A DNA stretch of 64,000 nucleotides from Schmidtea polychroa (taxonomy: Eukaryota): NCBI GenBank assembly GCA_044892525.1, contig CM097887.1, forward strand, positions 61,194,001 to 61,258,000, in the 5' to 3' direction. Below are positions 2,211-64,000 of the stretch, in pieces. The notes beneath the pieces were generated by a model that was not told the DNA's origin, ran no database searches, and saw nothing but the letters and a program-made list of their open reading frames with translations. How positions within the stretch are numbered: the stretch's first letter is position 1; each line of letters starts with the position of its first letter. Both the position numbers and the translations under genes were made by a program.

Positions 2211-2413
2211 GGATATATTGTATTATAAGTATCAAATATTATTATATAGTAAAAGTATAATAAGTATAAATGTTGGCACGCATAATAACCATTATTATTT
2301 AATTAATTAATTCGTCATTTAAATCGGGTGTTTTAATAATACCAGATTTAGGCAATAATTTGTATTTAAATATATTTGTAAATTATTAAGTGTTTATTAT
2401 TAACAAACATAAC
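2193..2413 (+). mobile_element. Polypurine tract and 3' LTR of the Gypsy element
   Basis: Purine run AAACAGGGAAGA directly precedes TGTTAG at 2205. Candidate LTR end is TAACA at 2401-2405 or CATAACG at about 2413. Confidence 0.65.
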
Positions 2414-5400: not shown

Positions 5401-8262
5401 TGTGACGCATGAATTGTCTATATTAAAATCAATTATAAAAAAAATTCAGACTTGAGATTATTATTCTAAAATTATTCAATTTCTTTTTATTTGTAATAAA
5501 CATTGTCTTGATTTTCAAAATTCGCGTTTTTGCTAATAGGTATTTTAATGTCAATTATTATTTGTTTAATTATAGGAAAATCAAGGCATCTATAAGTTGT
5601 TTATTATCATTCAAAACATGTTCTATTTATGCAAAATTATGTATTTTTAAATTGATACATAATAATTATTTTCATTAAATTAAAATTTCTTAATAAAATT
5701 ACACAAGTTCTTATAAAGACAAACGTAATATTAGCTTTTTATTATTTAATGCAGAGTCTCTCAAACCTTTTTTACTTGGCGACCATTTTAACGCAAGTAA
5801 ATATTTTTACGACCCTGGGTAGTTGGAATTACCCATTAAAATTACGAATTAAAACATTTGCTGATATTAAATCAAAAGCATAATTTCGAAAGATTTTTTG
5901 GTATACAAAAGAATAAAATTTGATAATACTAATAAAAACAAAGATAAATTTATACTAATGACCTAGATATGTGTTTGTTTACTTTTATATAAATCTTGAA
6001 AGAATATTAAATACTACATGGCGTTTTACAGAATTGACCGATTTTTTAATTTTATATATGTTAATGCTGAAAATGACACTTCACATAAATATGTTGTACA
6101 AAATTGTAGAAGTATGTTTCGAGACCCATTTCAGAGTGTTGGAAATTATACCCTAATCCCCACCCAAAATTAATTTAATGGTATTTTTGGAAAAGCTAAG
6201 TTTTAACTCTGTCCTCGATAACTTGGTAAATTCTTCTTAGGGGTGTAATGGTAAGTGACTGACATTAAACATTTCAATTGAGTATGGTTTTTGAATCGAA
6301 ATTTCTTTTTCAACATCAAAATTTGACGGAAAATATTTTTGAAAATGTGTTTCCCGACACTTCAATTGATCAATTATAACTTTTAAAGATATATATCTGG
6401 AAAGGTTATTTTAAATTATAAAATTATTATTTTTAAATTGTAATAAGCAGAGTATTGAATTGATTGTCAGTGTAAAGTGAAAGTTATTTGTGATTATCAA
6501 TAGAGATTTCTGTTGTCAAGTGTTATTTGTGGATCAGTCAAAGACACGCTTAGAGTCAGAGTAAGAACTTTAAATTTATCACCAACCCAATAACCCAACT
6601 ATACTGTAGGGACATATATTGTCCCAGAGAATTTCTAATAATTACTAAAATAATTTAAATGCTTACAAATGCATTGAGACCTGGGATTTTAGTACTGTAC
6701 GGTCATAAGCTCGTCAAAAAGTTCAAACCTGTCTGCTTTTTTTCTTTTCTATAAAATTTTGTCAGTCTATTAATTATTAAAATAAAAAAATCGTATTGAA
6801 AGGGTAAAATTTTTTTGGATTATTATTTGCGATTGGAAACTTAATACATAATATAACTCAAATAAACTTTTATACATACTTGTCAAGGAAGAACAGTGTA
6901 ACAATGTTACACTATAATTCTGTAAGTTAAAATTTTACACTAAAATTCAGGACAAGCTATAATATCGACTATTTATCGTTCATATTCTTTGCAACAAAAA
7001 TACAATAGGACAGAATAAAAAATAATTTGACGACTGCCAGAAAACAACTTTTATTTTATTTGTTAATTTCCAAAAGCGAAAAATTATTTACATAAACAAA
7101 AACTTAACAAAACAAAATATTATGAAATTTCATATATTAATACATATTATTATTATAAAGTAATTAATTCATTTAAAATATTTCTGAATAGCTACTTGAT
7201 TTTTACTATATTCTTTCGGTTTGGATTTGTCACCCTGGTATCATCTGCAGAAGTACGGTTCCTCAGCCAACTTGTTACATAGGGAACTGCATTCCAAGTT
7301 TTCAATGGGTGATCAATTAAGTTAAAAGTAATCAAATTTGATACGTTCTGCACTGTTAATTTGGCTCTGAAATTAGAAAATTCTGAATGACTCTAAAGAT
7401 AGAGACCAATCTTGCTGAAATATAAATATATAATATAAATTCAAATTTAACTTTTTATAGTTATTAAACAAATATTGTTCGAATTATTTTTCATGATATA
7501 TTGTACTACTTAGAGTTTATAATGTAAACCTACCATTGGTCGAAAACACTTAACAATCAATCCGTTGGATTTGAGATAATTAAGCTAATTGATGTCTTTA
7601 GTTTTCTAAATGTAGAAACTTACACAAATTATTTTTCATCGCTAGTCATTATTTTCTTCCATTTGATATTATTTTCGATGTATGTTAAATTTTTTTTCAT
7701 ATATCTTAAAAATCAAACTGGGATCCTGACAAATTTCTTTCCCATAGGCTCAAGAAATTCGTCTCTACATAAGTCTCTTTAAGCTTTAAATTTCCAGCAA
7801 ATTTGATTTTTCCCGCCTGTATAATATTTAAGCTCTTCAAGCATCTATAAAACGAATTTATAAATATAATTAATAATAATATTTGATTAATTACTGAAAT
7901 TTGCCTGGGCCCAAAATTATTTATCAACTTGTACTTATTTTTTTACTTATTTTGTACTTATTTTTTATAACTAATAAGATAGCCTTTAAAATACAGATAA
8001 GTTAAAAATAGTTTTTAGAATTCTTTATAATCACATTCAAAAAATATTCATATTAATAATCACAAAATTGTTGTCTAATTATTTGTTAAAAACAAAATAT
8101 TCAATTTCTAGATAAATTCAAGCGTTTTGATGAATTAAATTCTACAAATGAAATTAATTTAGCAACACTCCGCTGTGAAGAAAATAACAAATTCCCTAGG
8201 TAGGATATATATTAAAAACTTCATTTAATAAAATTAATAATTAATAATTACTATTACTCGCT

Positions 8263-8944
8263 CAGTGGCGTAGTGATGAGGTGGGAAGGGTATCATAGCC
8301 CAAGACAAACAAGATTTTCCGAAAAATTTCAATTTTTATTTTGGTCTATTTCTGGGAAATACATTTTAAATTAGGAATTATTGCAATATAATTAATTATT
8401 CCGATTGATTTGTCTGATAAAATATGTTATAAATAATGTTTGCAGTAAATCAATCAAATATATCCGTATACAAAACGTTCTTTCATCTTTCTTTCTGAAC
8501 ACTATGTCTGAGAATAACAATAGTTTTATTTTTTTATTTTTTTAAATGAAAAATTCAGAAAAATCAAACAGAAATATTCATTGTAATTCCAGACGTTTTG
8601 GAGTTCAAGGATGTTGCTTATTTAAAATTCAGTAATTATATTCAAATAATATCGAAATTATTATTCGTGGATTCAGAATATTTTAGAACGAATCCAGTCT
8701 AAATGCAGTAAAATTTAAAGCTTAACCTGAGCATGTATTACAGTGTAGTATTTTGTAGAAGCGTATTCATGTAGCAACTATTCGTATTACATATTATAGA
8801 GTATTTTAAGGTACTGCATTATATTAATATTTGTATTATATTCTTATTACAAATATATTTTATATATTATATTACTGTATATTTTTCGGGAGGTGCCAAA
8901 AGGGTATTGTGCCCTGGGAACTAGTAATGCTGACTACGCCACTG
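8263..8944. mobile_element. Non-autonomous hAT-like element (MITE) with CAGTGGCGTAGT TIRs
   Basis: CAGTGGCGTAGT at 8263 and ACTACGCCACTG ending at 8944. Flanks ACTCGCT / ACTTGCT form a near-identical duplication. Confidence 0.8.
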
Positions 8945-9100: not shown

Positions 9101-9321
9101 GACAACAAATTAATGCAATATAGTATATGTAGTTATAAAGAAGAAAATGATTTATCTCTTCTCTATTCTCCTAAAATTCCAAAGTCATGCCCAAAGTTAG
9201 TTTAATATTATAATTTTGAGTATTCTTATTTAACACATGACAATTTTTTGATTTATAGAAAATTTAGTGGGTGTGAACAGGTCCTGGTTTTATTATCAAC
9301 GACTTTATTTAAGAAAAGGTG

Positions 9322-9850
9322 AGTAGAGGGATAGCGACCCACTAAACCAACGGCCCTCTGAAACAAAGACATACCCCCCTGCCACTAAGATCTTTTTTTA
9401 AGGTCATTGTAACAACGATCATGACTCATCGGATGACTCATTCAAGGACCTTTTGTTTGATATGTATATTATTAGGTTTTAAATTTTTTGAACCTTGGAC
9501 CCTTCAAAGATATGACCTTCAAACTAACCTTCAAAAGTCCTTTTGAATGATATATAACTTGTAAGGTTTGAGAAACATTTAAGTTTGGACACCCCTTGAA
9601 GGTTGAGGACACACCATACACCTTCATACTCATCTTTAAAATCGTTCAATAAAATCCATTGGCGGGAACTCTGAAAATTCAAATATTAAATTTTAAAATT
9701 TTTAGAATGACTAATCGCATGACTCATGTGACCCTGAGAATGACGAGTAGTAGAACTCTTTTGACTTTGGAATATAGTTTCGTCTAATAACATAAACAAT
9801 ATATTATGAATGACTTTTATGACTCTTAGGACTTTTATGAATGATATATT
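9322..9850 (+). mobile_element. Remnant of a Polinton/Maverick-like terminal region related to 62.85-64 kb
   Basis: Starts AGTAGAG, followed by a short GC-rich block. Contains ATGACTCAT x3, TGACCTT and ATCGTTCAATAA..TTGGCGGGAACTCTG..TTAAATTTTAAAAT, which closely matches 63190-63240. Confidence 0.55.
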
Positions 9851-11399: not shown

Positions 11400-13913
11400 T
11401 AGGGCTTGGAAGAAACAGGAAAATTTCGAAAACCGGTTTACGATTATTAAGATGTATTTATATAAACTATTCTATTTATATCATTTATATTTTATTATTT
11501 GAATGTTGTGGTATGTTGAAATTTTTCGAAATATTATTTGGATTTTAATTAATTCCCCAGAAATGAATTAAGAAAATACTTTGTTTAAATAATATATAAT
11601 TATTCACTACTTTGAATTTTTTAACGTCTAAAATTAAAACGAATCCTAACATTGCGACCACGCCTATGCTGTGGTTTATTAGAACACCAGAAACATTCGA
11701 AATCGGCAATGACAGAAAAATTTATCGAAGAACCAGATAAATTTTTGGAACTTACTCAGACAGCCGAAAAACACAGAGGAGTTTTTATCAATGGAAGCAA
11801 CGCGAAAGTTCGAGGAAATGGATCCTGAAATTCACTACAAGAAAAGAATCCACGATGCCTTTATGAAGCTATCTAACTTAGCAAATGATCTCAACGAAGC
11901 CTTATCATTTCGAAGAGGAGGAAAAACAATTAATGAATTTTTTAAAATATAGAGAAGCTAGCAAAGAATGTAGTCAGGCACAATCTAACAGAAGAAGATA
12001 TGAAAATATTTTTTATCCAAAATTCTCTCGACAATAGAAATTATAAGAAAGATTTAAAATTACAAGGACCAAAAACATTCGAAGAAATAAAAAATCGATT
12101 TGTCAAATATGATGATATTATAATAGAAATTGAAATCGAAAACATTGCTAAGATACAGCATGTAAAGAAAAATTATGCTAAGGTAGCGATGTTGAATCAA
12201 GGACAAACATGGAACCAAAGAAAACAATATCATCGTCAAAGGAATGAAAGAATAGAACAAAGTCGGACTGTGGGACGACCGGAAACAAATACTCAAAGAT
12301 CAGGAAATAGAAATGAGTGGGAAAAGACCAGAAATCAAAGACAACTTCGAGAAGAACAACAGTGGCCCACGAGACATTTTAACGGATCGATTAGGAGAAA
12401 TGTTTATCCAAATCAAGATAATCGCATGCGAAGATGTTGGGCTTGTAGAGAAGAAGTTCATCTAAGATCAAAATTTCAAATGTAACTATTGTCACAAGAA
12501 TGGACACTTCAAACACTAGTGTTATGAAGTTAGTCCACAAAGGAAGTTCCAGAATTCTCGGTACATAGCTGCTTTCGGAGACGAGTGCGAACGATCGGAG
12601 CAAGGAGATGACCCAAAAGAATTTTCTCCGACAACCGGGTAAGTGATCGGAGCGATAAATTGAATGTAAGTGATATTTCGAACAATTTTTGCGTGGATTG
12701 TGAATGTATGTAGGACCTAAATTAGTATGAATGTTATTTGAATGTTGATATGTATTTTTATAATAGTTTGAATGAACTTAATAATTACAATATTTATGAT
12801 TTATATAATTTAAATGAAAATAAATTAATTTTTAAACCATATCGCTCTAAGTTAAGTTAGAAGTCCGAATACTTTCAATATAAAAGTGGAAAATTCTAAA
12901 GAATTTATAATTAATTATAACCATAATGTAGGAAGACCCAGTGTAGAAATTTAAATAAATAAAGAAAAAGCAATGTGTATGCTTGATACATGGGGGAAAG
13001 ATTAGTATTTAAGAATACGAGATTTATAAAAGATTTGACAAGGTAACATTGGAGAAATGTGATATTGAAGGGAAATATGCAAACAGCAGTGGCATAACTG
13101 TAATGAGAAAGATATATATATATATATATATAGCTGTAACTAACTGTAAGGGGTATTTCAAAACCAATGGAATTATATGTTACTCGAGGATTTGTTCCAA
13201 AAATAATTGGGGGGATAAATTTTTTAATGGAATTTAATATATATTTACAAAGAACCGATATTGAGAAATATGAGATAAGTTATATTGAACAAAAGAAAGA
13301 GGATTTTAAAAAAATGGAAAAAGAAGATAAAGAAATCGAGAAATTGATTGAAGAACATTATTATGAAACATAAATGGGACATTAGTAAAACAGAAATAGT
13401 ACAACATGAGATGATTTGACAAATTGAAGGGCTCCCACAAGCACATTTTAAAACTGAAATTTGAAATATTTTCTATACTCCTGATTTTTTGCTGTTCATA
13501 TTTAAGCTAAAATAAAAATTATTTTTAATATATTTTAAAAAAAAACATTTTTTTAAATAAATTAAATCGGTAGAACATGAAATTCATAAAAATAAAACAA
13601 TATTCACCACTAAAAACAAATTATAAAAACAATAAAATATAGTTTTCTAATATTTAGCAAATTGATATAAAACAATATATTTTAAGAAAATGTGCTAAAT
13701 ATTAGAAAACTATATTTTAATGTTTTTAAGATTTGATTTTAGTGCGTGACTATTCTATTTTAAAATATATTGAATTTCGTGTTCTATCAAATGTATTTAT
13801 TAAAAAATTTATCAATTTAAAAAATATATAATTAATAACCGGTTTTCGGTTTTTCGAGAACAAAAAACTGGTTTTTGGTTTTGAAAAATTTGAACACCGG
13901 TTTACAAGTCCTA
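11400..13913. mobile_element. hAT (TAGGG-type TIR) non-autonomous element with perfect 8-bp TSD
   Basis: TAGGGCTTG at 11400 and CAAGTCCTA ending at 13913, with AAACCGG/CCGGTTT subterminal repeats. TSD CTTGACAG at 11392-11399 and 13914-13921. Confidence 0.88.
11450..13420 (+). mobile_element. Ty3/Gypsy 5' fragment: LTR end, PBS, gag with two zinc knuckles, aspartic protease, start of RT; degenerate
   Basis: LTR end ...CCTAACA (11651) followed by PBS-like TTGCGACCAC (resembles tRNA-Arg PBS TGGCGACCAC). Gag from ~11708 with CWACREE.HL.SK. and CNYCHKNGHFKH.C. Protease MLDT(W)G and IIGGINFL, then pre-RT KWDIS.TEIVQHE. Multiple stops and frameshifts; left boundary approximate. Confidence 0.85.
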
Positions 13914-20405: not shown

Positions 20406-20765
20406 ATAGAGAATTCTAAAAATTATTAAATGAAAGATAATATTTGAATTAGTATAAATTGGTATAAATAGTTAGATTAAATCTTTGAATGATTTAAACA
20501 ACCACTATTGGAAGTTTGATTTGTAAAATTTTAAATGCTCATTTCTACTGTATCAATCATTAGTTCATCGAAACCAAGCTCATGGATTTCCACTTTAAAC
20601 ATACGAACTGCAATTCTGTAACTGATACTTATAATTTGAATTTTATAATTCTCTAGCCAACCTGAATTACATCGAAAATCAAAAAGGGGAAAATTAATTG
20701 GCACATTAAGTTCATTTTTTCACCACCTAAAATATCATTGCAATACGGGTCACGTTTGAATTTAA

Positions 20766-21353
20766 ATGCAACAGTGCGTTAAACGTCTTGGGGTAACCAG
20801 ACGTAGACGAGCGAATAGAAATTTTACTAATATGTTCTCTTAATATCTCAGGCATGCCTACTATTAGCCCAGAAGACAGCCACGCGAATCCTTCGGCATC
20901 TACATCCAGACTCAACCTAAACCACGCGGAGGTAGACGAAGTCGTCAGATTGACCAGGAGGAAGAACTCACTCGCCTGAGGTCCAGGTGGATCTGGTATA
21001 AGATTCATGATTGGACCTACCAGAATGTGGTCCCGGTGATCCCGAAGGTGGAGCCGTATATCAACTATACTTCATTGGCTTTGAGCGACGCATTCGACGA
21101 TGCGAAGGAGGCGGTGGACCGGTTGCATCGGCTCGAAACATCAGTCCTGGCCGGCGAGCTGGAAGACATCGACGGCTACGCCCGAGCCCAATGCCATCCA
21201 AAGCGGACCGCAGCTCTTCGCCGGGGGCTGGAATGCCCAAGAAGTCCTCGACGGGGATCGGAACAGTTGAGAAAACGCGGGCGCCCACGAAAAACCGCCA
21301 GCTCAGCCAAGGAGATTACCGAACTGAAAACTAGCGCTGTACGACATCCCTAA
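20766..21353 (+). pseudogene. Orphan AT-hook protein gene (cassette gene C), probably spliced, with one early stop
   Basis: Frame open from ~20868 to 21353: PRRQPRESFGIYIQTQPKPRGGRRSRQIDQEEELTRLRSRWIWYKIHDWTYQNVVPVIPKVEPY...QLRKRGRPRKTASS. Candidate intron GTGCGT (20774) or GTAACC (20793) ... TACTAAT ... CTCAG (20851). Sequence is GC-rich. Confidence 0.55.
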
Positions 21354-21362
21354 CATCTGTGT

Positions 21363-21641
21363 TGTGACTGAAGTCTTGTGATAAAAATAATTATCATGTA
21401 ATGACTCCGTTATTAATGTACCTTGCGATATTGTGTACTGGGTTAGATCACTTTGACCCAGAATTAAAATAATATTCGTTATGTCTTAGTAGTTTGTATT
21501 TAGTTAAATGTTTGGTTGGGTTTTGGTTGTCGATATTAATTTAATTGTGTGTATTGCTTGATTCTTGGTAATGTTCTTAGCGTTAACTATTATTATTATC
21601 GACTACAATTTTCCGTAACATTGACAGCCGATAGGGTTTGA
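21363..21641 (+). mobile_element. Putative 5' LTR (21363-21620) plus degenerate tRNA-Ser-type PBS
   Basis: Begins TGTGACTGAA and ends TTCCGTAACA (imperfect inverted termini). It is followed by TTGACAGCCGATAGGGTTTGA, similar to the tRNA-Ser PBS TGGCGCAGTCGGTAGGAT of 17.6/297-type Gypsy elements. No second LTR seen. Confidence 0.45.
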
Positions 21642-21769
21642 TAAGATTCATAGAACTCGGTTTTGGTGCGCGTAGGGGAGGGCTGCGACGAGGAGATTAC
21701 ATTCATTTAGTATTAATAACGTGCGTCACTCAATGCTGAGGTGAAAATTTCTAATGTTGTTTATTTTAG

Positions 21770-22238
21770 TGTTAAAACTCCTGGAAGAAATGCGAGCAGA
21801 TAGAGAGAATAGAGAGAATACCGGGCCAAGCTGGCACGAATCAAGGCCCATTGTCGGAACTTCGAGAGTACCTGGTTCCCGCCAGTAGAGATGAAAAAGC
21901 GGATGAAACTGATCACTCAACTGCAACTCCAGAGTGCCCAAGATCAGGTTGAGTTGCGGGCCCTCCGCCTTAGAGTGAAGGAGCTGGAGATCAAAGTTCT
22001 CCAACAGGATCTCGACCGAGATGTCATATCCAAAGTCCGGCCCATGAGTGAGCTGCTCCACAACCCAAAGGAGCGCGCATCACTGAAAGTCCCGAGGAAG
22101 AAGATCCGACCGGGTAAAGCGGCGCGGGCGAGAATGAGACAAGCCAGCCAAGCCCAATTAACACATCATTCTGCGGTGTCAGAGCCTACTCCGAAGGAAT
22201 CATCCACGACACTAAAATTTTGGAATGTGTTCTCCTAA
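21770..22238 (+). pseudogene. Orphan coiled-coil/basic protein gene (cassette gene D) with E-x-TWF-x-P motif
   Basis: Candidate intron 21721-21769 (GTGCGT..CTAAT..TTTTAG). A frameshift occurs near 21810 (AGAGAGAAT duplication), then an open frame EYRAKLARIKAHCRNFESTWFPPVEMKKRMKLITQLQ...KELEIKVLQQDLDRD...RKKIRPGKAARARMR to TAA 22238. AATAAA follows the stop. Confidence 0.6.
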
Positions 22239-22477
22239 TAAATATTTATTGGTGTATTCATATCTGGGCATTTCGATTTTACCATAACGTTGATTATCAT
22301 AACGGGGACTAAAAGAAACCGGACATAGGCCTTCTATCGGCAGTCCGTGAACCCCAGTGGGTGCTAGACAATTATAGTATGCTAGGCATGCTCACTTTTT
22401 GCTAGTACCCAAACCCTTGATACAGTACCAACGTTGATTACTCAACGGGTATCAAGTGGTCAGCTATAAATTGTATC

Positions 22478-27790: not shown

Positions 27791-28276
27791 GTACCATTTT
27801 CATGATAATTAGGACTAAATAGAGTCGTCACTCCCTTGTGACCAGTATTAGTTTTTCTTCCATAATTTGTATGAGGTATTTTCAGCTGGGAATTAAATAT
27901 TTCAATTATTTATTAAGATAATATTAAATGATAAATAATGAACATTTAAAATAAGTTTTAAAATAAGTTTTAAATTAAAAAGAGATTTTGTTAAAGATAA
28001 ATTTTATATAAATACATTTTAATAGTAAATAATTTTTAAATAAATACATTCGTTTAAAAATTATACAATATTTCATTAAATAAATACTTGTTATTATGAC
28101 GTTATCTTTTGAACCTGATTTAAAAAATAATTTAGATGATGTTCTAGCAGCTTCTAATAATCTATATTACTATTTTCCTTAATGTAGTAGACTGAAAACT
28201 TTGATTAATCTAAATTTCTCTTTGAGATGTTATACGGTCTTTGACCTGCTATGAATTTATATCCTTTTCATTTTAG

Positions 28277-28797
28277 TAATTAAATACAAATCGACAAAGA
28301 ACGTTTTGAGACCATCTTTTTCCTGCGCAAATAAGAACGCGCAAAACGCCGTGCTTCGGGAGGAAAATATACTCTTGCGCACCAAGATTGATAGGCTTGA
28401 GGGGACATGGTTTACCCCAGGCCAGGTGAAGGAAGCAAACCAGAAGGTGTTCCAACTAGAAAATTGTCGGGACAACCTTATTGAGGAAAGTCACACAAAA
28501 TATGCCTCGATACAGGAGTAAATGCAGGCTATGTATCAAGTCTACACCCAAAACGAACTCTAGGCACAGATCCAGAACCTTTCATCTGTGTTCCAAGCAA
28601 ACCCCATACCTGCCCACCATCTGGCATATGACACAGTGGCTGCCAGATCTTCGGCCAAGTGAGGGGTTCTCAATGTTGGTTTTGAGTCCTTCAGCACTAA
28701 TAGCCCCATTGTCGAAGACCTTCGCAAAATCGATTGTGGTGAGTTTATGTGCCACCAATCCTCCAATCAATATGACGCCACCATGACCGAAGCGTAA
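28277..28797 (+). pseudogene. Orphan coiled-coil protein gene (cassette gene H), paralog of gene D, 3 internal stops
   Basis: After acceptor CCTTTTCATTTTAG (28276), a single frame reads ...NAVLREENILLRTKIDRLEGTWFTPGQVKEANQKVFQLE...SIQE*MQ...NEL*AQIQ...SSAK*GVL...TMTEA*. GC-rich. Confidence 0.6.
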
Positions 28798-31053
28798 ACA
28801 AATATCTAGATCTGAAAGAAACTTCAGGAAGCGGGCATAGCAGGCCGCCGCACAGTTTCCTGGTTAATTAGGTCAACTTACCCGAAATCAACATGCATAC
28901 TTTTTGCATGGATTTTTCATGGACGCTAGGAGCAAACAATCTGATTAGCTTTGAACATTTACCATTAATAGATTTTTGATTATTGATTTCGATTTTTTTA
29001 TTTATTAAATTAACAATATTCAAACAAATTAACAACTAATAATCGTAATCAAACTGTATCAAACTGAAAGATATTTTAATAACATTTTGAAAAACATTTT
29101 TTTAATCATATAAAAATTATTTTAATTTTAAAAATGCACAAATTGTTAACATTCTCAAACAAAAATCTTTTTTAAAATTAATATAAAAAATAAATTTAAA
29201 TTTAAGAATTAAAAATTGTTTAATACAAAAAATTTAACAAACAACAACATCATCCCAAATATTAAAGATACAGGTTAAATTATTTAAATACATTCAAAAT
29301 CACTATAGACTGACCACTTTGAATTAATATTCAACAAAACAAAACTGTTTTAAAAATGTTCAATATTTGTTTGGAAATTGCAAAACAAACATACAATATT
29401 AAAAACTAAGATAAATGAAATACATTAAATTTGGTCATTTGAAAAACTTTTAACTAATTTAATTAACTGGGGTCACGAAAATTTTTTTGTAAATTTTTTG
29501 GGCACAAAAAATAGTTTTGGAAACGCTGATTTAAGTTATTCTAAATATAATAATATTTTGGATTTAATACAGAAATATGAATTAAAATTATTTAAATATG
29601 AATAATAATGTGGTAATTTCTAAATCCTTGAGAAGACTAATTAGCCAACTTCGAGTCATCCGATGGAGCTAAAACTTGACAAACAGATAATGCATTTTAT
29701 TAAATGAGTCTCATTTGTAGAATCCCATTGACTATTTTACGGAACCCATTTTGAAGACCAATGATCTAGTTAAAGTAAGAATATTGAGAGTTTATGATAT
29801 GTCTACGGAATAGCTTATGTTGGAATTTGAAAAATGATACAAGAGTGGTTTTATTTTCAAGAAAAATGTTTTTTTTTGATATATTGCCACATTTAAGGCA
29901 TTCTTTGTTTATATCTATGGCTAATTGGGCAAGTACATCTTTCTCTTCACTTTCACTTTCACAGCCTTTGGTGGATTCTAATATTCTAATTATTATTTTC
30001 CAGCATTTGTAAAAGTTGAATTAAATAAATACTAAAATAAATAAATACTAATAAATAAATACTANNNNNNNNNNNNNNNNNNNNNNNNNNNNNNNNNNNN
30101 NNNNNNNNNNNNNNNNNNNNNNNNNNNNNNNNNNNNNNNNNNNNNNNNNNNNNNNNNNNNNNNNNNNNNNNNNNNNNNNNNNNNNNNNNNNNNNNNNNNN
30201 NNNNNNNNNNNNNNNNNNNNNNNNNNNNNNNNNNNNNNNNACATAACTACAAACAAGTTTGATGACAATGTAATTAAATGATCTATTCTCTATAATGACA
30301 ATGCAAATATATACAGAATACAAAAGATAAAAACATTCTCCACAACTTGTACCAGTAATTATCAGCAGGACTCGAAAGAAAATTTTATCAACTTTGAACA
30401 AGTTAGATTGCGGAAGTCAGCATCAAAAAACAATAAGTAAAGAAACAAATCATAATATCTTCATTGTCCTAAACGTCAAAGATATTGAGCTATGTATAGA
30501 GTAATTTTATCAATGATTAAGATGCCAGATAGCTGAGTGGATTGTGACATTTTGAGTAGTTGACAAAGTCAGTTGGTTGACTCCTCCATTAAATGAATAA
30601 GGTTTAACTGCGTGACCAACGATCTTTTTTCCATCTAACCAACTATTGTTTCACTGAGATTTCAGGCCGTACACGTGCACAATATCACCATAAATGCATC
30701 GTTGTTTCTAGTACATTTCAATCATCTATTTCGGAAATCCGCCGTTAATTCTCCACACAATAATTGATGCCATTGTTCTATCTAACTAACCTCTCTGTTC
30801 GTATTTCCGCTTTGATATTCTTACAAAATAACACATGAAACTAATTCACAATCAATTTACGAAAATAAAGAAGCATCTTCAGTTTAAATTGATAAGTATG
30901 TTAATTTAATTATTATTTATATTTCAATTTGTCAAATTAATGAGACTGCTACTTAAATTTTCAAGAAATTACATTTCCATGTTATAAAATGTAAATCAAA
31001 ATTGGAATGTAGTTTTTAAATTTTTAATAAATTTTGTTGTCTATTATCTTTAA

Positions 31054-53283: not shown

Positions 53284-54859
53284 TATTTAGGGTAATCTCT
53301 CTAAAAACAGTGAACTCGGACTCGTGATATAAGTAATTCAAATTTTTGAAATCTTTACAAGAAAGTAATTCCGTTTTCTATATGATAAATATTACATATT
53401 TCAATATTTTATTCTTTGAATTTACCACTTGTCAAAATTTTTTTTACAATTTTACTTATGATATTACATAAATTTGCGGTTTTGCCACTCACCTACGCAA
53501 TGTAATTACATAAGGGTTAAAATAATTATATATTAAAATAAAATAACACTTTTAAAACTATTCAATCCTAAGATTTCAATTAAAAATAAAATTTGTTTAT
53601 AAATCTGAAAAAATTAATAAAAATAAATATAAATTGGAAATAGGTTGTAATTATTTAAATTACATTAAAATATTATTATAAAAATATAATATAAAATTAC
53701 AATGTTAATTCATTCAAGCAATGAGTAAATAATAAAAAATCCATTTAATACTATTAAAATAAAATTCAAAAATTAAAACAAACAAGAAAACAATTGGAAA
53801 TATTTAAATAAATAAATTTGATCAAATTAATTAAAGAATTTCTTGAATTTAATTCCAATAAATCCCATGTTGAAAATATCCCAAAAATTCTCATTCACTG
53901 ACAGAACAATTATTCCATATTTTCTTTGAAGTTCTAACTCAATTATATTCTCATCAATTTCCCATTGTATCATCATCAATAAAATTAAAAATAATTAAAA
54001 AATTAATATTTAATGATGAAAATATTTGACATTGCCTTTGATTTGCTTGTTCGAATTTACTTAGCCAAACAAACCCCAAATCGATATTTCTCGAATCCAA
54101 TTCAAACAAAGCATAAATTAAATGTTAAAGAATAAGTAATTATCTTATTAAAACATTCTGGGAAATACCGAAATTATTGTAGCATGTAAACATGTTAATT
54201 TAGTAAATAACTCAATCAATATTTGTTACTTCACTTTGATGATTTTGTTCAAAGAAGTAAATAAATTTGTTTTCATTTTATTTCAAGNNNNNNNNNNNNN
54301 NNNNNNNNNNNNNNNNNNNNNNNNNNNNNNNNNNNNNNNNNNNNNNNNNNNNNNNNNNNNNNNNNNNNNNNNNNNNNNNNNNNNNNNNNNNNNNNNNNNN
54401 NNNNNNNNNNNNNNNNNNNNNNNNNNNNNNNNNNNNNNNNNNNNNNNNNNNNNNNNNNNNNNNNNNNNNNNNNNNNNNNNNNNNNNNNNNNNNNNNNNNN
54501 NNNNNNNNNNNNNNNNNNNNNNNNNNNNNNNNNNNNNNNNNNNNNNNNNNNNNNNNNNNNNNNNNNNNNNNNNNNNNNNNNNNNNNNNNNNNNNNNNNNN
54601 NNNNNNNNNNNNNNNNNNNNNNNNNNNNNNNNNNNNNNNNNNNNNNNNNNNNNNNNNNNNNNNNNNNNNNNNNNNNNNNNNNNNNNNNNNNNNNNNNNNN
54701 NNNNNNNNNNNNNNNNNNNNNNNNNNNNNNNAAAAAACGGTAACAAAAATAATAAAAATTTTTTAATTGACTTAAATAACGATAATAAATAAAAATAAAA
54801 ACCAAAATATCTTTTTTATGTATAAAAATTTTATTATCCAGAACTTTGAGGATTTTGAT

Positions 54860-56310
54860 TTAGGACAAAAATTTTAGCCAACAACATTTATTCATTGTTT
54901 TCATCATTTCATTCTGTAGTAATTTCAAGACTAACTTGGACTTGAAATTTGATTTCGTAAAAGATTTGAAAACATAGGCCAAATACATAACTACTCTACT
55001 GAAAACCAAGCAGGCACCGCATTCGGCAAATGCAACATTGAATGAAAGAGTCGCATCGTAAATTAATCCTACAATTGGAGGTCCAATTAGTATGAAAAAT
55101 GTCACGTCTAATTTATCCTCACCAAATATGTCCACCAATACCACAGATGACAAAGTAACAAATGCACCGGACATCATTCCATAAAAGAAAGTGTAACCAA
55201 TCATTAAAATAAACATTTTTATTCCCCAACTAACAAGCAATGCTAATTCACTCAACACAACCGTTGCGTTGTAGATATGAAATCATTTTAAGCGTTTCAT
55301 CGTTGCTAAATATCCGAAACCCACTCTACCGAATCGGTTTCCAATTCCGATTGATAAAATGAGAAAGCTTCCTTTACTGTTACTGATCCCATTCTGAATT
55401 GCTCTATCCTTTGCAAACATATAAGGCGCATTGAACGCGATGTTTGAAAATACATTTGAAATCAGAAATAAAATGAATACGGAATTTTTCAACATTGCAA
55501 TATATGATAGTAAGGAAAACGTATTCAAGGTTGTCTTTAAGTTTTTCATCACTCTCTTCAACATTTACATTTGACATTTGTTTCGATAATAATGACAACT
55601 CGATATTTTCTTTTTTCTCATTTATGTTGTCTTTTGTGGCATTATTTTCAGGCTGTGAATTGTTACTTTCAAAGTTACAGTAAGAAGCTGAACAAAGTGC
55701 TAAAATCAGTATCATTAAACCAGTTATTAACATTGCTTGTTGCCAGCCACCTTTTGTTAACAAAAACTCAATATACGGACTGAAAATGAAAGTTCCGAAT
55801 CCTGATCCACAAACTGCGATCCCAATTGCAAATGAGCGCTTCTTATCAAACCACATGTTTACAATTAGAATCGAAGGTAAATAGATCAAACGAAATCCGA
55901 TTCCACAAACTACAGAAGAACTCAAAATCAGAAACCACATTTCACTATAGGAATATGGCGCTGCGAGTCCGACAGTAGGTATAATAGTTCCGGCTATTGG
56001 AATTGACTTGTAACTAAATCTTCGACATAAGTAACTCGTGATGGGAGAAACGAGGAAGATCACAGCTACTAATATTGACCCCATCCAACCCACTGTATTT
56101 CTGGATATTTTATAATGTTTGATATATTCTGTTGTCAAAACCCCATAAGATTAAACGATTCCATCACTGATCAAATGAGAAATGAAACTCGCAAGTACAA
56201 TTACCCATCCCCATCTTTGATCTTTTATGTACTGTTTTGTTTTTGATCCACTTCCGGATGCGTCCTTATGATCCTTATCAACATTCTCTTCGACATTTTG
56301 ATTATTTATT
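54860..56310 (-). pseudogene. slc16a: Monocarboxylate transporter (SLC16/MCT, MFS) pseudogene, intronless
   Basis: WGWVIVLASF..H.I.DG, YLCRRFSYK, YLPSILIVNMWFDKKRSFAIGIAVCGSGFGTFIFSP, GRVGFGYL, GPPIVGLIYD. Disruptions: premature TAA at 56151-56153, a frameshift near 55540, in-frame TGA at 55283-55285 and an apparent deletion in the late TM region. Confidence 0.9.
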
Positions 56311-56929
56311 GTCGTGTTTTATTAATTAAATGGAATATTTTAACAAAATTCTCAGATTGGTAGGCTGTAAATTTGACGAAGTTAAAGAATATATTAATTT
56401 GTTTTATTAAGGCAAACGAAATGAAATTGATAACCATGAATATTGATGATATCCAGAAGTATAAAAAAGTAGGATTTCCTGATTCATTTGAAGAAAGAGA
56501 ATGCACCTGGCTCCCTTAAGAAAGAATAAATTTTGTTATCTACAAATCAGATTTAACATAAAATAGTTGGGACACAATAATTATGATCTGTGACTAGAAT
56601 GGAANNNNNNNNNNNNNNNNNNNNNNNNNNNNNNNNNNNNNNNNNNNNNNNNNNNNNNNNNNNNNNNNNNNNNNNNNNNNNNNNNNNNNNNNNNNNNNNN
56701 NNNNNNNNNNNNNNNNNNNNNNNNNNNNNNNNNNNNNNNNNNACGGCAGCAATAGGGGGGGGGGGGGGGGTAAAAAATGTTGCAAACTTTTGATTGCATA
56801 ACTTTTTCCGTAGACATTTTTTGATTACACAATTGTTGCCGTAATGCCCAATGTTTTCTGGGATTTTAAATACAAAATTTTTTTTTTTTTTTTTTTTTTT
56901 TTGTCAATAAACAAGCCAAGGATAAATAT

Positions 56930-57882
56930 TATTTGGGTGGGTCTCCTTGGTCCTGAGAATTTCAATAGAAAAAGGTAGTCTTCAATAAAAAAGCATGGAT
57001 TTTTCACACTATAGTGAGGGGATCTTCTTGGTCATGAGAATTTCAATAGAAAAGGTGGTTTACATTAAAAAACGCATAGTAAATTTTTAAAATAAAGCAA
57101 ATTATGGGTCTAAAATTTAAAAATAAAGTAAATGATGGGTCTAAAAATTTAAGTAAATCAAGGTTCAGATTTATTTTTGAAATAAAGTAAATTATGGTCT
57201 AAATAAGTAAATTATGGGCTAAGATTTTTCAATTAAAGTAAATAATGGTTCTAAAAAATTAAATTACAGTAAATTATGGTCCAAATTTTTAAATTAAAGT
57301 AAATTATGGTTCTTAAAAATTAAATTAAAGTAAATTATGGTCAAAATTTTTGAATTACAGTCCAAAAATTTAAATTAAAGTAAATTATGATCCAAATTTT
57401 TAAATTAAAGTAAATAATGGTTCTAAAAAATTAAATTAAAGTAAATAATGGTCCAAATATTTTAAATTACAGTAAATAATGGTTCTAAAAATTAAATTAC
57501 AGTAAATAATGGTCAAAAATTTTAAAATTAAAGTAAATTATGGTTCTAAAAATTAAATTAAAGTTAATTAAGGTCCAAATTTTAAAATTAAATAATCAAT
57601 GGTAAAAAAAAATTTAAATTAAAGTTAAATAAGTAAATTAAAGTAATAATTTTTAAATAAGTAAATTAAAGTAATGTAATAAGTAAATTAAAGTAAGATT
57701 TTTAAATTTATTAACAAAAATAGAAGGTGTTTGAGAATTGAAATTTTTTAATGGAAATTTTAATGAATTATTTTTTAAGTAATTTTTAATAGAAATTTTT
57801 ATGAATAATTTTCAATGGTAATTTTTAATGGAAATTTTAATAGAATAATTTTTAAGATAATTTTTAATGAAAATTTTTATGA

Positions 57883-57932
<50 letters not shown>

Positions 57933-58075
57933 TAATATTAATAATATATCAACCAAATACTATACAACACATAAAAAATTAACTAAACACATAAAAATAA
58001 CTAGACACATAACAAAACATATAAACATTAACTAAACACATAAAAATGAACTAGACACATAACAAACATAAAAAT
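56930..58075. repeat. Series of tandem repeats downstream of polB
   Basis: Two ~75-bp copies (CTTGGTC.TGAGAATTTCAATAGAAAAGGT); ~30-bp units TTAAAGTAAATTATGG(TCC/TTC)... at 57080-57620; AATTTTTAATG units; (AAT)n at 57885-57935; ACACATAA units at 57965-58070. Confidence 0.9.
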
Positions 58076-58119
58076 TTACCAAATAACAAATGTAAAGATA
58101 TAAAATTTATTCAATAAAA

Positions 58120-61100
58120 TTAGTCCTCATCGGACAAAATAACGTCATCGATATCGATGTCATCTTCTCCAAAATCTTCATTTAATTCTTCCTCATCTTC
58201 TCCAACATTTTCTGAAACATTTTCTGCAACAATTTCTCCAACATTTTCTCCAATATTTAATTCACTTAATCTTACATGCCCATATGCAAGACTAGTATTT
58301 TTCCCCACCCAAACCCTTTTGTCATCTTTGTTAGTTAGTGCTATTTTTGTGTTTTTAATTGTAAAAATTTGATGATTTTTGCTTGTTATTTTAGTCTGAG
58401 GAACCGAAAAAATCTGGTTAGTGTTATAACAATCCAGGTATGACTGATGTTTTATGTCACTACCTTTCAATGTTACACCTTTAGCCTTTTTTGTTTCCTC
58501 ATCACTCAACAAGCTATAACATTTAGGTCTAAGAAAAACCCACTCCTTATATTTAAGACCTTTATTCTCGTCTTTGAACTTTCCAATGACTGAATCAAGG
58601 TTCTTACTATATAAGGAATGACAACTATTGTAACTGGAAGTATCCAATAAATTATCTCGAACCATTGCAGGTAAAAGAACCTCAAGTTTGCAGTTAATGA
58701 CTTCGAGGAAAAAAGAATCTGTATCACCTGCAACGATATTAATTTTACAATTAAACTCATTGCGAAATGATTCCAGATCCTTATATTGCAATTCATACAT
58801 TCTAAGTTTAGATAGATCAAGTACAGATTGACCAATGTAACTCGGTCTATCTAAACATATAGAATCTGAATTCAATAGTGCTGCAATTAAATTATCTGCT
58901 ATTTTAATAGATTTTTTAAAAGTCGGTTTTGACGAATATTTAACTAATTTACCGGCAGTTGTACAAAGACGAAGATTCATTCTTCTCTTTAAATTTTCAA
59001 CTGTTTTGCCGTATAAACTATTATTTAGCAATTTATAATAATTTTTATCTAAGCTATTTACGCTTTTTGATCTTAATTCGGTATTTGTATCTATATATTT
59101 TTTAAAAATTGGTGATTGCTTAAATCTTACACCCCTATTTACACGTGTTACTTTAACACCAAGTTCCAAATATAATTTTAATAATCTCCAATGAATAACA
59201 TAATTAGATTTTGGAAGATGAGTTAATAATAATTTTTCAACCTTAGACCCAGCAGGTTTCATTTTTTCAGCAGCTACAGGGAAATCATCCAACTTATCAT
59301 GAAGCTCAGAAGGAATTACAAGATCAACTTCAAGTGTGTATCCATAAGACAAAGATTCAAGATTTAAATTCCTACATTCATCCATTATTTTATCAAATCC
59401 ATCAAGAACCCAACAAAATTCGCCACAAGGTAATGATTGACTTAAAGCCCAGCCATAAAGATTATTAATATCTATATATAGTAACTCGGTGTTCTCGTCG
59501 GTTTTTACGTAATGCTTATTCACAAAAGTAAGACCGCCTCTTATTCCACCCTCATAAAAGCTAAACATTTCGTTTTCAGTTATGAGTTCAATTGGTTCAT
59601 TTAAAGACATTAATGCAGAAGACCAAGACATGCCTGGAATTCCGAAATAATTCAATGGTTCCAATCTATTGTGAGCAATGGATTTCAACCGAAACTGATG
59701 AAAGAAATCAGCCAAAAGAAAACAATCAAGTTTTAGGTAGATCATCATATAATCTAATAAAGTTACGCAATTAGTTTCTACCCAAATCTCCTGAGCTTTT
59801 TCATACTCAAGCTCAGTGACACCCTCCCAGATTGGTGGTAATTCATAAGTAGTTTGGAGAATATCTAAAGAAGTGGCGAAATTATAAGGGAAGATTCCTT
59901 TTTCACTTACTATGGTGCCAGAAAAAGCAGAATTAGTAAAAGGCAAAGAATTCAAAGTTTTGACTGCTTTAGCCAAAGAATCATTGACAAATTGATACGA
60001 ATCAATGAATCTTAGGCTAATTTTACCTAAATGAGCAATCAAAGATATAAATTTTTCCGTAGTTATTGGGATGCACCCTAAATTCCAATTTTTAAATTTA
60101 TTTAATCCATATTTAAGTATATGGTGCATATCGTATCCCTTCAAGTTGTGAAATACAATAGGCAAAATTTTATTTATTTTTCTATTTACGTTACATGTGC
60201 TACAAGCTGCACCCAAGTATTTCCCCATAAAATGATCGTGATCTCTAACAGGATCCACGATAGATTTCAAACAAAGATAACAATCCGTTGAATTAATGAA
60301 TTGTTGTTGCTCAATTTTCGTTAATTTAATCATTGGTTTCCTACCCATTTTATAATAAAAAGGAAGAACCTTATTTAATGCTATATCCTCTATAGCACTT
60401 AAAAAACTCTCGACGCAATCTAAACCTATGAACTGCTGATAAGATTTAGATCCGTCAAAGTTATTTACTAGTAAAAGACCAGCAGATATTGGCATGTGTC
60501 GCTGAAAATGATCATTATCAGAAGGTAAAATAGCCTCAAAATCGGCATAAACTACAAAAGGAGGAGTTACTGTTTTCGACCAGTCAGTAAACTGTAAGAA
60601 TTTATTTTGAGGGAAAGTATAAAGAGTTGTTCCTAATTGATTACGTTTGCATAATATTTCATGTTTTTCTAGTGCGTTTCTATTATTAAACCCATTCAAA
60701 CACCGATGGCACCATAATGAACGTATGCGTGTAGGACAAGTAGTGTTGATACCACAATTCAATAACCTATTTAAATTGCTTATAGCAACGTAATGGAAAT
60801 TGTTCCCTTTATTTAATAATAGTAAATTAATTACAGTTCCATTTAAAACTTTGGAACGATGTATAATGTCTAAATGTGGGTGTTTTAAAACGTAATTATC
60901 TATTAATTGTTTGTTATTGTCATAAGAAAAAACGTTAATTATTAAACCAAGATTTTTGGCCTCGAATTTTCTAATATCTTTTAATTTCATGGGTAAGTCC
61001 AATGGATTATATATTAATTCAGATAAATTATAACTGGATGTCCTATTTCTAGCATAACTACTAACCTCATCATATTTTAAAATAGCTAAAATGCTATATA

Positions 61101-61731
61101 AAAAACATGAATCATCGGTGTTTTTTATATTAATTAAACAATATTTATTTTTTAGATAAGTAGGTAGTTCAATGAAACTCCTACCACTTAATCTACTTAG
61201 CCTACTTATCTTTGTTATGGTGAAGTGAATTTCTGTTATTTTTTTTATGATCCAGCTACTTCCTAACTCTGTGATATTACTTATTTTCTCGTTTAGTTCC
61301 CTAATGCCTTCGTCAAAAAATGATGCAGTTAAAGGCTTTGCATAATTTGAGATATTATTAACCTTTATTTCCCCGTCTTTTTCAAATTCGATTGTTATTC
61401 CGAATTGAATTTTGACGGAGCCTAATTCGTTAATAATATCTCGTAATTTTTTTATTAGTTGTTCAGGAAATATTATTTCTTTTATATTTAAGTCGCTTGT
61501 ATTTAAGCTTAATATTTGATGGGTACCTCTTAGATCTTTTTGTATTATTGGAACATTTCCACCTATTTGTATTATATTTAATCCATCCCAAGAGTCAAGG
61601 GAAATATTATCTAATCCGACCTGGGATTCAACAACCAATCCATCATGGGATTCGACAACCAATCCATCATTGGATTCCACAAAAGGCAATCCGACCTGGG
61701 ATTCAAAAGAAGAAGTATCTAATTTAATTTT
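58120..61731 (-). CDS. polB: Protein-primed family B DNA polymerase of Polinton/Maverick/adintovirus type, with endonuclease VII-like His-Cys domain; apparently intact
   Basis: Uninterrupted frame of ~1200 codons. N-terminal SFIELPTYLKNK..INIKN.D..CFLYSIL. Exonuclease motifs VYADFE, FHNLKGYD, YLKLDC. CYLC...VRDHDH..G.YLGAAC..CN. Polymerase motifs YIDINNLY, KLLNNSLYGK, GDTDS, GKFKDE, KAKGV. Acidic C-terminal tail. The true start is uncertain because there is no ATG for ~230 codons. Confidence 0.95.
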   Translation of the reverse strand, partial: KIKLDTSSFESQVGLPFVESNDGLVVESHDGLVVESQVGLDNISLDSWDGLNIIQIGGNVPIIQKDLRGTHQILSLNTSDLNIKEIIFPEQLIKKLRDIINELGSVKIQFGITIEFEKDGEIKVNNISNYAKPLTASFFDEGIRELNEKISNITELGSSWIIKKITEIHFTITKISRLSRLSGRSFIELPTYLKNKYCLINIKNTDDSCFLYSILAILKYDEVSSYARNRTSSYNLSELIYNPLDLPMKLKDIRKFEAKNLGLIINVFSYDNNKQLIDNYVLKHPHLDIIHRSKVLNGTVINLLLLNKGNNFHYVAISNLNRLLNCGINTTCPTRIRSLWCHRCLNGFNNRNALEKHEILCKRNQLGTTLYTFPQNKFLQFTDWSKTVTPPFVVYADFEAILPSDNDHFQRHMPISAGLLLVNNFDGSKSYQQFIGLDCVESFLSAIEDIALNKVLPFYYKMGRKPMIKLTKIEQQQFINSTDCYLCLKSIVDPVRDHDHFMGKYLGAACSTCNVNRKINKILPIVFHNLKGYDMHHILKYGLNKFKNWNLGCIPITTEKFISLIAHLGKISLRFIDSYQFVNDSLAKAVKTLNSLPFTNSAFSGTIVSEKGIFPYNFATSLDILQTTYELPPIWEGVTELEYEKAQEIWVETNCVTLLDYMMIYLKLDCFLLADFFHQFRLKSIAHNRLEPLNYFGIPGMSWSSALMSLNEPIELITENEMFSFYEGGIRGGLTFVNKHYVKTDENTELLYIDINNLYGWALSQSLPCGEFCWVLDGFDKIMDECRNLNLESLSYGYTLEVDLVIPSELHDKLDDFPVAAEKMKPAGSKVEKLLLTHLPKSNYVIHWRLLKLYLELGVKVTRVNRGVRFKQSPIFKKYIDTNTELRSKSVNSLDKNYYKLLNNSLYGKTVENLKRRMNLRLCTTAGKLVKYSSKPTFKKSIKIADNLIAALLNSDSICLDRPSYIGQSVLDLSKLRMYELQYKDLESFRNEFNCKINIVAGDTDSFFLEVINCKLEVLLPAMVRDNLLDTSSYNSCHSLYSKNLDSVIGKFKDENKGLKYKEWVFLRPKCYSLLSDEETKKAKGVTLKGSDIKHQSYLDCYNTNQIFSVPQTKITSKNHQIFTIKNTKIALTNKDDKRVWVGKNTSLAYGHVRLSELNIGENVGEIVAENVSENVGEDEEELNEDFGEDDIDIDDVILSDED

Positions 61732-61974
61732 TTAATTTTTATTATTTTTTTCTATAGTTGAGGGTCTTTTAAAAACACTATCTTTTTTAAAATTAAACCT
61801 ATCTAAATGATTTTTATGTTTATTATAAAAAACGCTATATGTTACGGGGTCACTAGTCTTACATACGGGACATATTTTAAAACACATTTTGACGCTAAAG
61901 TTGACTTATTTAACATTTTCATAATAATTTAATAAAAATAATGTGATGAACCCACAAAGTAATATCATTTTTCA

Positions 61975-62310
61975 TCAAATTGCAAAACAGTAATAACGTT
62001 TTCATAAAATTGTAACAAAGTAATAACATATTTCAGATAAATTTTCAACAGTTGTAAAATATTTAAGCAAATTGTAACAAGATTAGAAAATATTACAACA
62101 AAGTAGTAACATATTTCAGAAAATTTCAACAAATTTGTAAAATATTTATCAAATTGTAACTAAAATAATAAAAATATTGCAACAAAGTAATAAAATAATA
62201 ATGGTAATTAAGACAAATCAATACATTATTTCGAAGACGGACAACAAATTAAAAAGAATATTGTAACTAAAATAATAAAAATATTGCAACAAAGTAATAA
62301 AATAATACAA
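61975..62310. repeat. Degenerate tandem repeats (TTGTAACAAAGTAATAA-type)
   Basis: Recurrent TTGTAAC/TTGCAACAAAGTAATAA units. A ~47-bp block is duplicated at ~62154 and ~62261. Confidence 0.8.
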
Positions 62311-62326
62311 CATTTTAAACTCTAGA

Positions 62327-62800
62327 TCAATCCATTTTATAGAAAATTAAATTTTATCTATATAATATATGAATAAATATCCAAGGAAATTACGTTAACG
62401 TATAATAAATACAAATTTATCGTAAAAACATGTGTGTATTACACACAAAACAAGATACATAATTTCTAATCAATCCATTTTATAGAAAATTAAATTTTAT
62501 CTATATATTATATGAATAAAATCCTAAGAAAATTACGTTAACTGTATGAAAAATACAAATTTATCATAAAAACATGTGTGTATTACACACAACATACGAG
62601 ACATAATTTTTAATCAAGCTATTTTATAGAAAATTAAATTTTATCTATATAATATATGAATAAAAATCCAAGAAAATTACGTTAACCGCGCGAAAAACTA
62701 CAAATTTATTGTAAAAACATGTGTGCATTACACACAAAGCATCAAACTGAAATTGTAATTGCGCCATGTTGTAGAGAATTAAATTCTGCCTATACATTGT
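62327..62800. repeat. Three (plus one partial) 143-144-bp tandem repeats containing palindromes
   Basis: Units start at 62327, 62470 and 62614. Each has TACGTTAAC(GTA) and TGTGTG(T/C)ATTACACACA. Confidence 0.9.
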
Positions 62801-63039
62801 TACACTTAAATCTCGATCAGACATGTGAAAAGAGACATAAAAGAGAAAGAACAGTAGAGTAGTATGATTGGGGCCATCCAGACCAGGTCACCGCCAGGCC
62901 ACATATACCCTCTCCCCCCCCGTGTGTAAAATAATGTTAATAATAATATTTATACATCAGTAGATAGATCTTGCACTAAGCTTCAAAATAAGCTATCCAA
63001 TAATAAATTCGGATAATGGGAACGATAACTTTGGGGCAA

Positions 63040-64000
63040 ACGAAAACCAGGTCACCGCTGGACCACTAATAATTATATGACCTTGAAAATGATTTTTGGT
63101 TAAATGTTAATAACTTTGTTAATATTAATGATGATGATACCTTCCATGGATCAATCGAAAGGTCTTAGACCGAGCGTTAAAATGAGGTATCGTTTAATAA
63201 TATTTGTTGGCGGGAACTCTGTACATTTAAATTTTAAAATATGACCTTGAAAAATTAAATGATCACTTAATTAAAACAAAAAATTAAATTAAAAAATGAC
63301 CTTGAAAAAATAAATGACCTTGAAAATTAAATGACCTTGAAAAAATAAATGACCTTGAAAAAATAAATGACCTTGGAAATAATAAATGACCTTGGGAATG
63401 ACCTTGAAAAAATAAATGACCTTTTAAAAAATAAATGACCTTGAAAAAATAAATGACCTTGAAAATAATAAATGACCTTGAAAAAATAAATGACCTTGAA
63501 AATAATAAATGACCTTGACCTTTTATTAAAAATTTGACCTTGACCTTGATGAGTCATCGTTCTAAAAATATGATGAGACAACGAATGAGTCATTGTCTTT
63601 GTTCTAAAAATGTGATGAGTCATCGTATGATAAAAATCTATATCTCATTAGAAAGTTCTTGCACAGAGCTTTAAAATAAGGTATCGATCAATATAATATG
63701 TTGGCGGGAACATTTATCTTTGGGATGAAAAAAAGTAGGAGCCCGCTGGGCCAATTAATAATATTTTGACAAATAATAATAATTTAACTTTGAAAAGATG
63801 GTGGTCATTAAATGTTAATAACATTAAAACTATTAAAGATATATAAGATAACTATAGCTCATTCGAAAGGTCTTGGACTGAGCTTTAAGATGAGGTATCG
63901 TTCAATAAAATTTGTTAACGAGAACATTAATTTTTGGGATGAAAAAAAGTGTGAGCCCGCCAGGCCAATTAATAATATTTTGGAAAATAATAATAATTTA
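63040..64000. promoter_or_regulatory. Motif-dense repeat block: ~17 TGACCTT(G) copies, 3 ATGAGTCAT and 2 TTGGCGGGAA within ~200-bp degenerate modules
   Basis: ~18-bp tandem AAAAATAAATGACCTTG at 63290-63548. TGAGTCA at 63550, 63586 and 63616. TTGGCGGGAA at 63207 and 63701. The module CGAAAGGTCTT.GAC.GAGC..TAA.ATGAGGTATCG recurs. Regulatory function is inferred. Confidence 0.5.

Follow-up and report, generated by a model that had tools for sequence, protein, structure and literature searches.

Why should a long, stop-free polymerase gene lie between tandem repeats with none of the genes that normally accompany its kind? The question is posed by a stretch of 64,000 nucleotides of Schmidtea polychroa DNA (contig CM097887.1, positions 61,194,001 to 61,258,000; "the window", numbered here from its first letter), whose minus strand encodes a protein-primed family-B polymerase (pPolB) at 58120-61731. 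The original prediction, made from the sequence alone, described an intact Polinton/adintovirus-type pPolB without companion core genes and suggested a reduced polB-only element, an unusual gene order or a domesticated polymerase. We reach a more ordinary answer, to which we give a probability of roughly 70%: the window holds a young, just-inactivated copy of a Polinton/Maverick element that has been clipped by an assembly gap, by neighbouring repeats and by the window edge, its other genes lying outside the readable 7.3 kb.

Results

The reading frame runs for 1203 codons without a stop, as had been claimed, and ends in an acidic C-terminal tail; at the stop-triplet frequency of the window, so long an open frame has a chance probability of ∼1e-41. 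Its product is a protein-primed family-B polymerase, and the catalytic residues reported for it were all confirmed, comprising those of exonuclease motifs ExoI, ExoII and ExoIII, polymerase motifs A, B and C, the KxY motif and an HNH/endonuclease-VII-like insert (Table 1). A sequence search of the PDB with the single window protein as query gave no match. An AlphaFold2 model of residues 41-1164 (pLDDT 91.6) had phi29 polymerase as its closest solved structure in the PDB (E = 6e-19), and its closest viral structures in BFVD were bidnavirus-like, adintovirus and MELD PolBs sharing 18-24% identity, with the bidnavirus-like PolBs at the top (E 1e-64, 18-20% identity).

Residues 61-330, when folded separately, formed two domains, one like the little finger of PolIV and the other like an OTU protease. 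The former, a terminal-protein (TP) domain, aligned with the PolIV little finger 4ir1 at Z 8.2 (rmsd 2.5, 92 aligned; VIA-align), and the latter scored Z 6-7 against many OTU/vOTU chains. All 35 aligned proteins share Cys209 and His313 of the vOTU domain as well as Ser158, which lies beside Gly157 between helix 2 and the final strand and is, by its position, a candidate priming residue. The HNH insert matched T4 endonuclease VII by profile (E = 0.002), and PF02945 (endonuclease VII) was recognized in 31 of the 35 aligned members; Atlas clusters of mostly arthropod origin contain endonuclease-VII inserts as well, and the insert by itself is therefore no guide to where the window pPolB belongs. 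The predicted domain order, TP-vOTU-C2H2-Exo(HNH)-Pol, supports a Polinton pPolB, in which an N-terminal TP is followed by a vOTU with its catalytic Cys and His, and this anatomy together with the structural matches bears out the original assignment to the Polinton/adintovirus type.

The description of the gene as intact did not survive closer inspection. The first Met of the long frame is residue 248, and a homologous N-terminus, encoded directly upstream in the same frame, is severed from it by a stop at 61732-61734. The product of the severed stretch resembles the N-terminus of P0003 (50% identity over 38 amino acids, E = 8e-11), and the N-termini of many clade proteins (see below) match it as well. 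The window copy is interrupted once near its start, by a nonsense change or an assembly error. Five in-frame GT..AG intron candidates occur in the region of the stop, and relatives do have introns in the same linker; however, the donors of the short candidates are non-consensus when compared with the GTAAG/GTAAT of the relatives, and the protein alignment is collinear across the stretch, so that a nonsense change or an assembly error appears more likely than an intron.

The gene or part of it was present in 20 of 24 listed runs from eight studies, and runs that had been found by means of the gene cover it by choice. Contigs from four runs (X1, X2, X5 and X11, an RNA origin of the last being only a guess) were aligned to 54732-64000. 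Depth was low over a host locus of the major facilitator superfamily (MFS), rose in the bin holding the assembly gap, and remained high through to the end of the window. The median summed contig depth of the gene relative to the host MFS side was 763x in X1, 4128x in X2, 270x in X5 and 110x in X11, a measure that is inflated by short overlapping contigs and is not copy number. The MFS locus was spanned by single long contigs in X1 and X5, and the host was therefore present in both. Tens of thousands of aligned X1 and X5 records were 90-95% alike, variants overall being 90-99% alike, and X2 held near-identical pieces (0-2 differing letters over 170-406 bases, depth 65-233), which agree with the recent insertion that had been proposed. 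The count of genomic copies that had been recommended was answered qualitatively, without an exact number, by very high depth and many variants: the gene belongs to a young, diverse, high-copy mobile family, interspersed in a eukaryotic genome in the manner of Polintons. One apparent joint, 55223-60614, was discarded as a chance match with only 28 bases on one side.

A total of 660 proteins matched the window protein. In a tree of 117 sequences (54 selected proteins and the 63 loci whose frame was of sufficient length; built with FastTree from 494 columns and midpoint-rooted), it fell within a clade of 49 members with a support of 1.0, mostly from metagenome contigs and 42-63% identical to one another. 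Outside this clade, an rve integrase, an A32/IVa2 ATPase or a capsid family accompanied pPolB in 22 of 26 long-contig relatives (9 of 11 and 13 of 15), counted among the ORFs chosen for scanning. More distant relatives comprised 35 loci in genome_contigs, all 24-36% identical, and 19 in viral_contigs found with alignment A2, 28-36% identical and none in the clade. Near the clade in the tree is L038, a contig of canonical Polinton-like type on which integrase, ATPase and capsid are joined by a TBP homologue at 7791-8399(+). Another pPolB relative (L092, 8329-23186) has as neighbours a reverse transcriptase and an integrase block that appears to be duplicated; its 106-kb contig was binned as a bacterial metagenome-assembled genome and is probably mis-binned eukaryotic DNA.

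Repeat padding around pPolB is common to close relatives that have further genes beyond it (L022, L013 and L007). In L022, 21-bp arrays behind pPolB are followed by small genes, with a dual-specificity phosphatase at 1.7 kb; in L007, a 14/28/84-bp array lies in front of pPolB. The phosphatase of L022 is intron-split and shares the stretch 2284-3514(-), downstream of the clade pPolB, with a 153-codon frame without an assigned family, and the gene directly behind pPolB in L013 (2307-2828(+)) has 26 relatives, with no Pfam match in the 14 scanned. Clade proteins often sit on contigs of 11-19 kb, comparable in length with intact Mavericks (12.7-24.6 kb; PMC8097293). Shorter sizes recur: in the P0002 cluster, 4 of 14 members are on contigs of 5,700-5,706 (∼5.7 kb), and other clade proteins are on contigs of 6.7 or 7.3 kb. 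The same clusters also sit on contigs of 11-16 kb, however, so the short sizes look like assembly breaks at repeats. None of the 29 clade contigs of at least 9 kb matched in size the 64 from homologues of the L038 capsid, a comparison (best 120 of 370, one lineage, 10 clusters) that is uninformative on absence.

Four clade loci (L003, L004, L014 and L019) have AT-rich GT..AG introns of 44-53 bases within the 5' part of pPolB. Removal of three such introns from L014 joins the start to the main frame and leaves all 174 codons open; in the other three loci, a simple intron scan did not open the entire 5' stretch. Intact vertebrate Mavericks are reported to be intronless (PMC8097293). The sequence TATATAAAC lies upstream of the gene in four of seven loci checked. 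By title and abstract we found no prior description of the clade lineage or of an intron-bearing pPolB, most subscription papers and Repbase being beyond the scope of that search.

The flanks of the window gene had been called pure repeats; they do consist of tandem arrays without a core gene, except for ∼150 bp on the 5' side, which are the gene's own start. Neither flank (56744-58119 and 61906-64000) matched any of 24 integrase-, ATPase- and capsid-type queries or contained an ATG-initiated ORF of at least 100 amino acids. No rve integrase was found in 56744-64000, a block bounded by the gap and the window edge, and no packaging ATPase, adenain, or major or minor capsid gene was found in the window, where the same two limits truncate the block. 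The rve that the window does contain (585-1916) is part of a Gypsy element, at a distance of 56 kb from pPolB. No inverted-repeat pair surrounds the gene in the window, neither end of the element was seen there, and tRNA and Rfam scans gave nothing above threshold. Loose contig ends at 57713 suggest that 56744-57713 is also joined to other DNA elsewhere; others at 62930, together with greater X11 depth to the left of 57512 and to the right of 62766, are tentative signs that the outer flank blocks can be found without the gene as well.

Table 1. Features of the window around the pPolB gene (strand as noted; a point marks features without strand)
Feature	Position	Strand	Remarks
Broken MFS gene of monocarboxylate-transporter type, comparison locus	54863..56300	-	low depth, intron-less
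Assembly gap	56605..56742	.	low-to-very-high contig depth step in same bin
3' flank, non-coding, high-copy	56744..58119	.	31-bp array 57205-57630, 12/39-bp array, (AAT)n, 19/49-bp repeats
Long pPolB frame	58120..61731	-	1203 codons
ExoIII and polymerase motifs A, B, C	58714..59739	-	motifs
Polymerase motif C	58714-58728	-	motif
Polymerase motif B	59005-59034	-	motif
Polymerase motif A	59452-59478	-	motif
ExoII	60130-60153	-	motif
HNH/endonuclease-VII-like insert, between ExoI and ExoII	60190..60282	-	motif and profile matches
ExoI	60535-60549	-	motif
C2H2 zinc finger	60649..60711	-	C341, C344, H357, C361 invariant
vOTU cysteine protease domain, residues ∼188-322	60766..61170	-	Cys209 and His313 present
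TP (D1) domain, residues ∼69-177	61201..61527	-	fold match to 4ir1
In-frame stop dividing gene start from long frame	61732..61734	-	break in window copy
N-terminal CxxC..H..H zinc-finger-like coding stretch, same frame as pPolB	61735..61887	-	Met at 61885-61887
5' flank, non-coding, high-copy	61906..62850	.	83/84-bp and 144-bp tandem arrays
High-copy block	62858..64000	+	opens with AGTAGT; 18-bp TGACCTTG array, four 72-bp units; continues past window edge

AGTAGT has been reported as an end motif of Mavericks (PMC8097293); the one at 62858 faces away from the gene, and the motif is present 36 times in the window. The block that it opens may be where a second element ends, or may belong to the sub-terminal region of the pPolB element. 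Stretch 62851-64000 contains 15 TGACCTTG/CAAGGTCA sites, of which the rest of the window has none, as well as three TGAGTCA and two GGCGGGAA; we take these to resemble nuclear-receptor half-sites, AP-1 and E2F sites, and they may form an enhancer-like array within a repeat end. The same motif set (three TGACTCA, TGACCTT and GGCGGGAAC) occurs at 9290-9760, where a stretch of 50 bases matches 63189-63238 at 82%; judged by its sequence, this region probably shares its origin with the right-hand block and has since diverged.

Elsewhere in the window, the MFS gene is 84% identical to P0170, and its named matches are molluscan, arthropod and flatworm proteins at 33-41% identity. The statement that all other coding sequence is broken needs qualification by a Gypsy-type RNase H and integrase at 585-2207, which includes 444 open codons at 585-1916; a remnant resembling gag is present at 11600-13400. 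Overlapping frames of 100-160 codons are found in GC-rich islands (35-46%) at 20700-22300 and 28250-28900; two frames scanned at 20.8-22.3 kb had no Pfam match.

Discussion

The gene is most likely the pPolB of a Polinton/Maverick family, of the Alpha-type adintovirus PolB class, amplified in an AT-rich invertebrate genome. PolBs of that class carry OTU and pfam03175 and give strong matches to bidnavirus PolB (Starrett 2021, PMC8502044), and the modelled OTU domain and bidnavirus-like best matches of the window protein fit this description, as do its integration and multiple copies within an animal genome. PF03175 is shared by 18 of the 35 aligned clade members but not, in a Pfam scan, by the window protein itself. 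The window differs from Alpha-type adintoviruses in lacking adenain, rve, FtsK ATPase, hexon and penton genes in its readable 7.3 kb, and in the padding of pPolB with 1-2 kb of repeats on both sides. With Polinton pPolB of TP-vOTU-Exo-Palm organization (Krupovic 2024, PMC11161782) the gene shares a TP fold like 4ir1, which that paper also sets beside TP, a Ser that follows helix 2, precedes the last strand and neighbours a Gly, and the retained OTU Cys and His; it differs by an extra N-terminal CxxC..H..H finger, the one severed by the stop, and by a C2H2 finger before ExoI. An HNH endonuclease domain within pPolB is also shared, by description only, with the pPolB2 of nematodes and oomycetes (Jeong 2023, bioRxiv 10.1101/2023.08.22.554363).

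A young Polinton copy, recently inactivated and clipped, would leave a polymerase of this kind in the window. We infer that the core genes are elsewhere in the family; they would be missing from the window because of tandem-repeat padding of 1-2 kb or more and because the gap, the window edge and high-copy repeats, adjoining or nested, clip the copy. This reading is favoured by the core genes of most long-contig relatives outside the clade, by the arrays and further genes around pPolB in close relatives, by clade contigs as long as intact Mavericks and by the state of vertebrate Maverick loci, of which 96% are degraded and 2,166 have no discernible terminal inverted repeats (TIRs; PMC8097293). 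Expansion of Mavericks has been reported in Dugesia, and piRNA-silenced Polintons in Schmidtea. Several observations nonetheless weigh on the other side. No TIR or target-site duplication was seen around the window copy, and no core gene was found in 13 readable clade flanks (9,191 bases, the longest 2.2 kb). Distant, canonical relatives have flanks much richer in genes than those of the window, and the tree places the window protein in a separate clade of 49 members. Neither the window protein nor alignment A1 retrieved a relative from viral_contigs, and the inflation of summed contig depth noted above also counts here.

If the missing genes were missing in fact, the gene could belong to a reduced element without capsid or integrase, consisting of pPolB and at most a few small, intron-split genes, copying itself by protein priming and relying on a borrowed Polinton integrase or on its own HNH to nick the target. 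The absence of core genes from 56744-64000 and from the clade flanks, the non-canonical clade neighbours (the L022 phosphatase and the L013 family without a Pfam match) and the recurrent contig sizes of ∼5.7, 6.7 and 7.3 kb would suit such an element; but the longer contigs of the same clusters, the lack of matched ends around the window copy, and the consistent pairing of pPolB with DDE integrases in the examples of a 2026 preprint make it unlikely. The polB-only element or unusual gene order of the original prediction is not favoured, given the repeat padding in relatives that do have further genes, the 11-19 kb clade contigs, and the bounding of the window copy by gap and edge. Extended to the whole clade, the idea becomes that of a Polinton-derived lineage that dropped its capsid, ATPase and integrase module, carries spliceosomal introns, small host-like genes and array padding, and reached hundreds of copies by self-priming with a borrowed integrase or its own HNH; we regard this as somewhat more doubtful still.

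Two further explanations were weighed. Vesanto virus is segmented, and an integrated segment of a virus of this or a bidnavirus-like kind, with pPolB on a segment of its own, would account for the recurrent short contigs and for the bidnavirus-like top structural matches. Bidnavirids share the fused TP-vOTU-pPolB arrangement, yet identity to them is low, no parvovirus-like capsid gene lies near the window pPolB, and Alpha Polinton PolBs match bidnaviruses in any case (PMC8502044). Bidnavirids have an inactivated vOTU in which at least one of the catalytic Cys and His is replaced (PMC11161782), whereas both are kept here. The spliceosomal introns and the very high repetition in the genome are more in keeping with an integrating transposon, and inverted ends are absent, so that a viral segment is improbable. 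A host polymerase kept intact by selection, the domestication proposed originally, would explain 3.6 kb without a stop amid broken genes and the 6 of 9 variant sites in the frame that are synonymous, although the latter (9 sites among 40 of 442 rows) is weak and equally expected of an active element under selection. A host gene should be single- or low-copy with an intact frame; this one has very high depth, thousands of variant contigs, flanks of mobile-type repeats and a stop near its start. Membership in a young, diverse, high-copy family, together with that stop, disposes of domestication, which we consider the least probable of the explanations.

For working copies of the Polinton family to which we assign the gene, the anatomy of the protein and the account in PMC11161782 would suggest the following cycle. 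The TP domain would be nucleotidylated, probably on Ser158, and would then prime synthesis at the ends of the excised linear element; the vOTU protease may release the TP, the proofreading polymerase would copy the element, and insertion of the copy would fall to an integrase whose gene lies in another part of the element.

The window copy is one broken member of a Polinton burst; it is of use in annotation, and it marks a pPolB lineage that has been little sampled. The lineage represented by the clade is of more interest than this copy, several members having introns at the 5' end of pPolB where intact vertebrate Mavericks are reported to have none. Were it true that this lineage is also without integrase and capsid, a protein-primed polymerase alone could drive a high-copy animal transposon.

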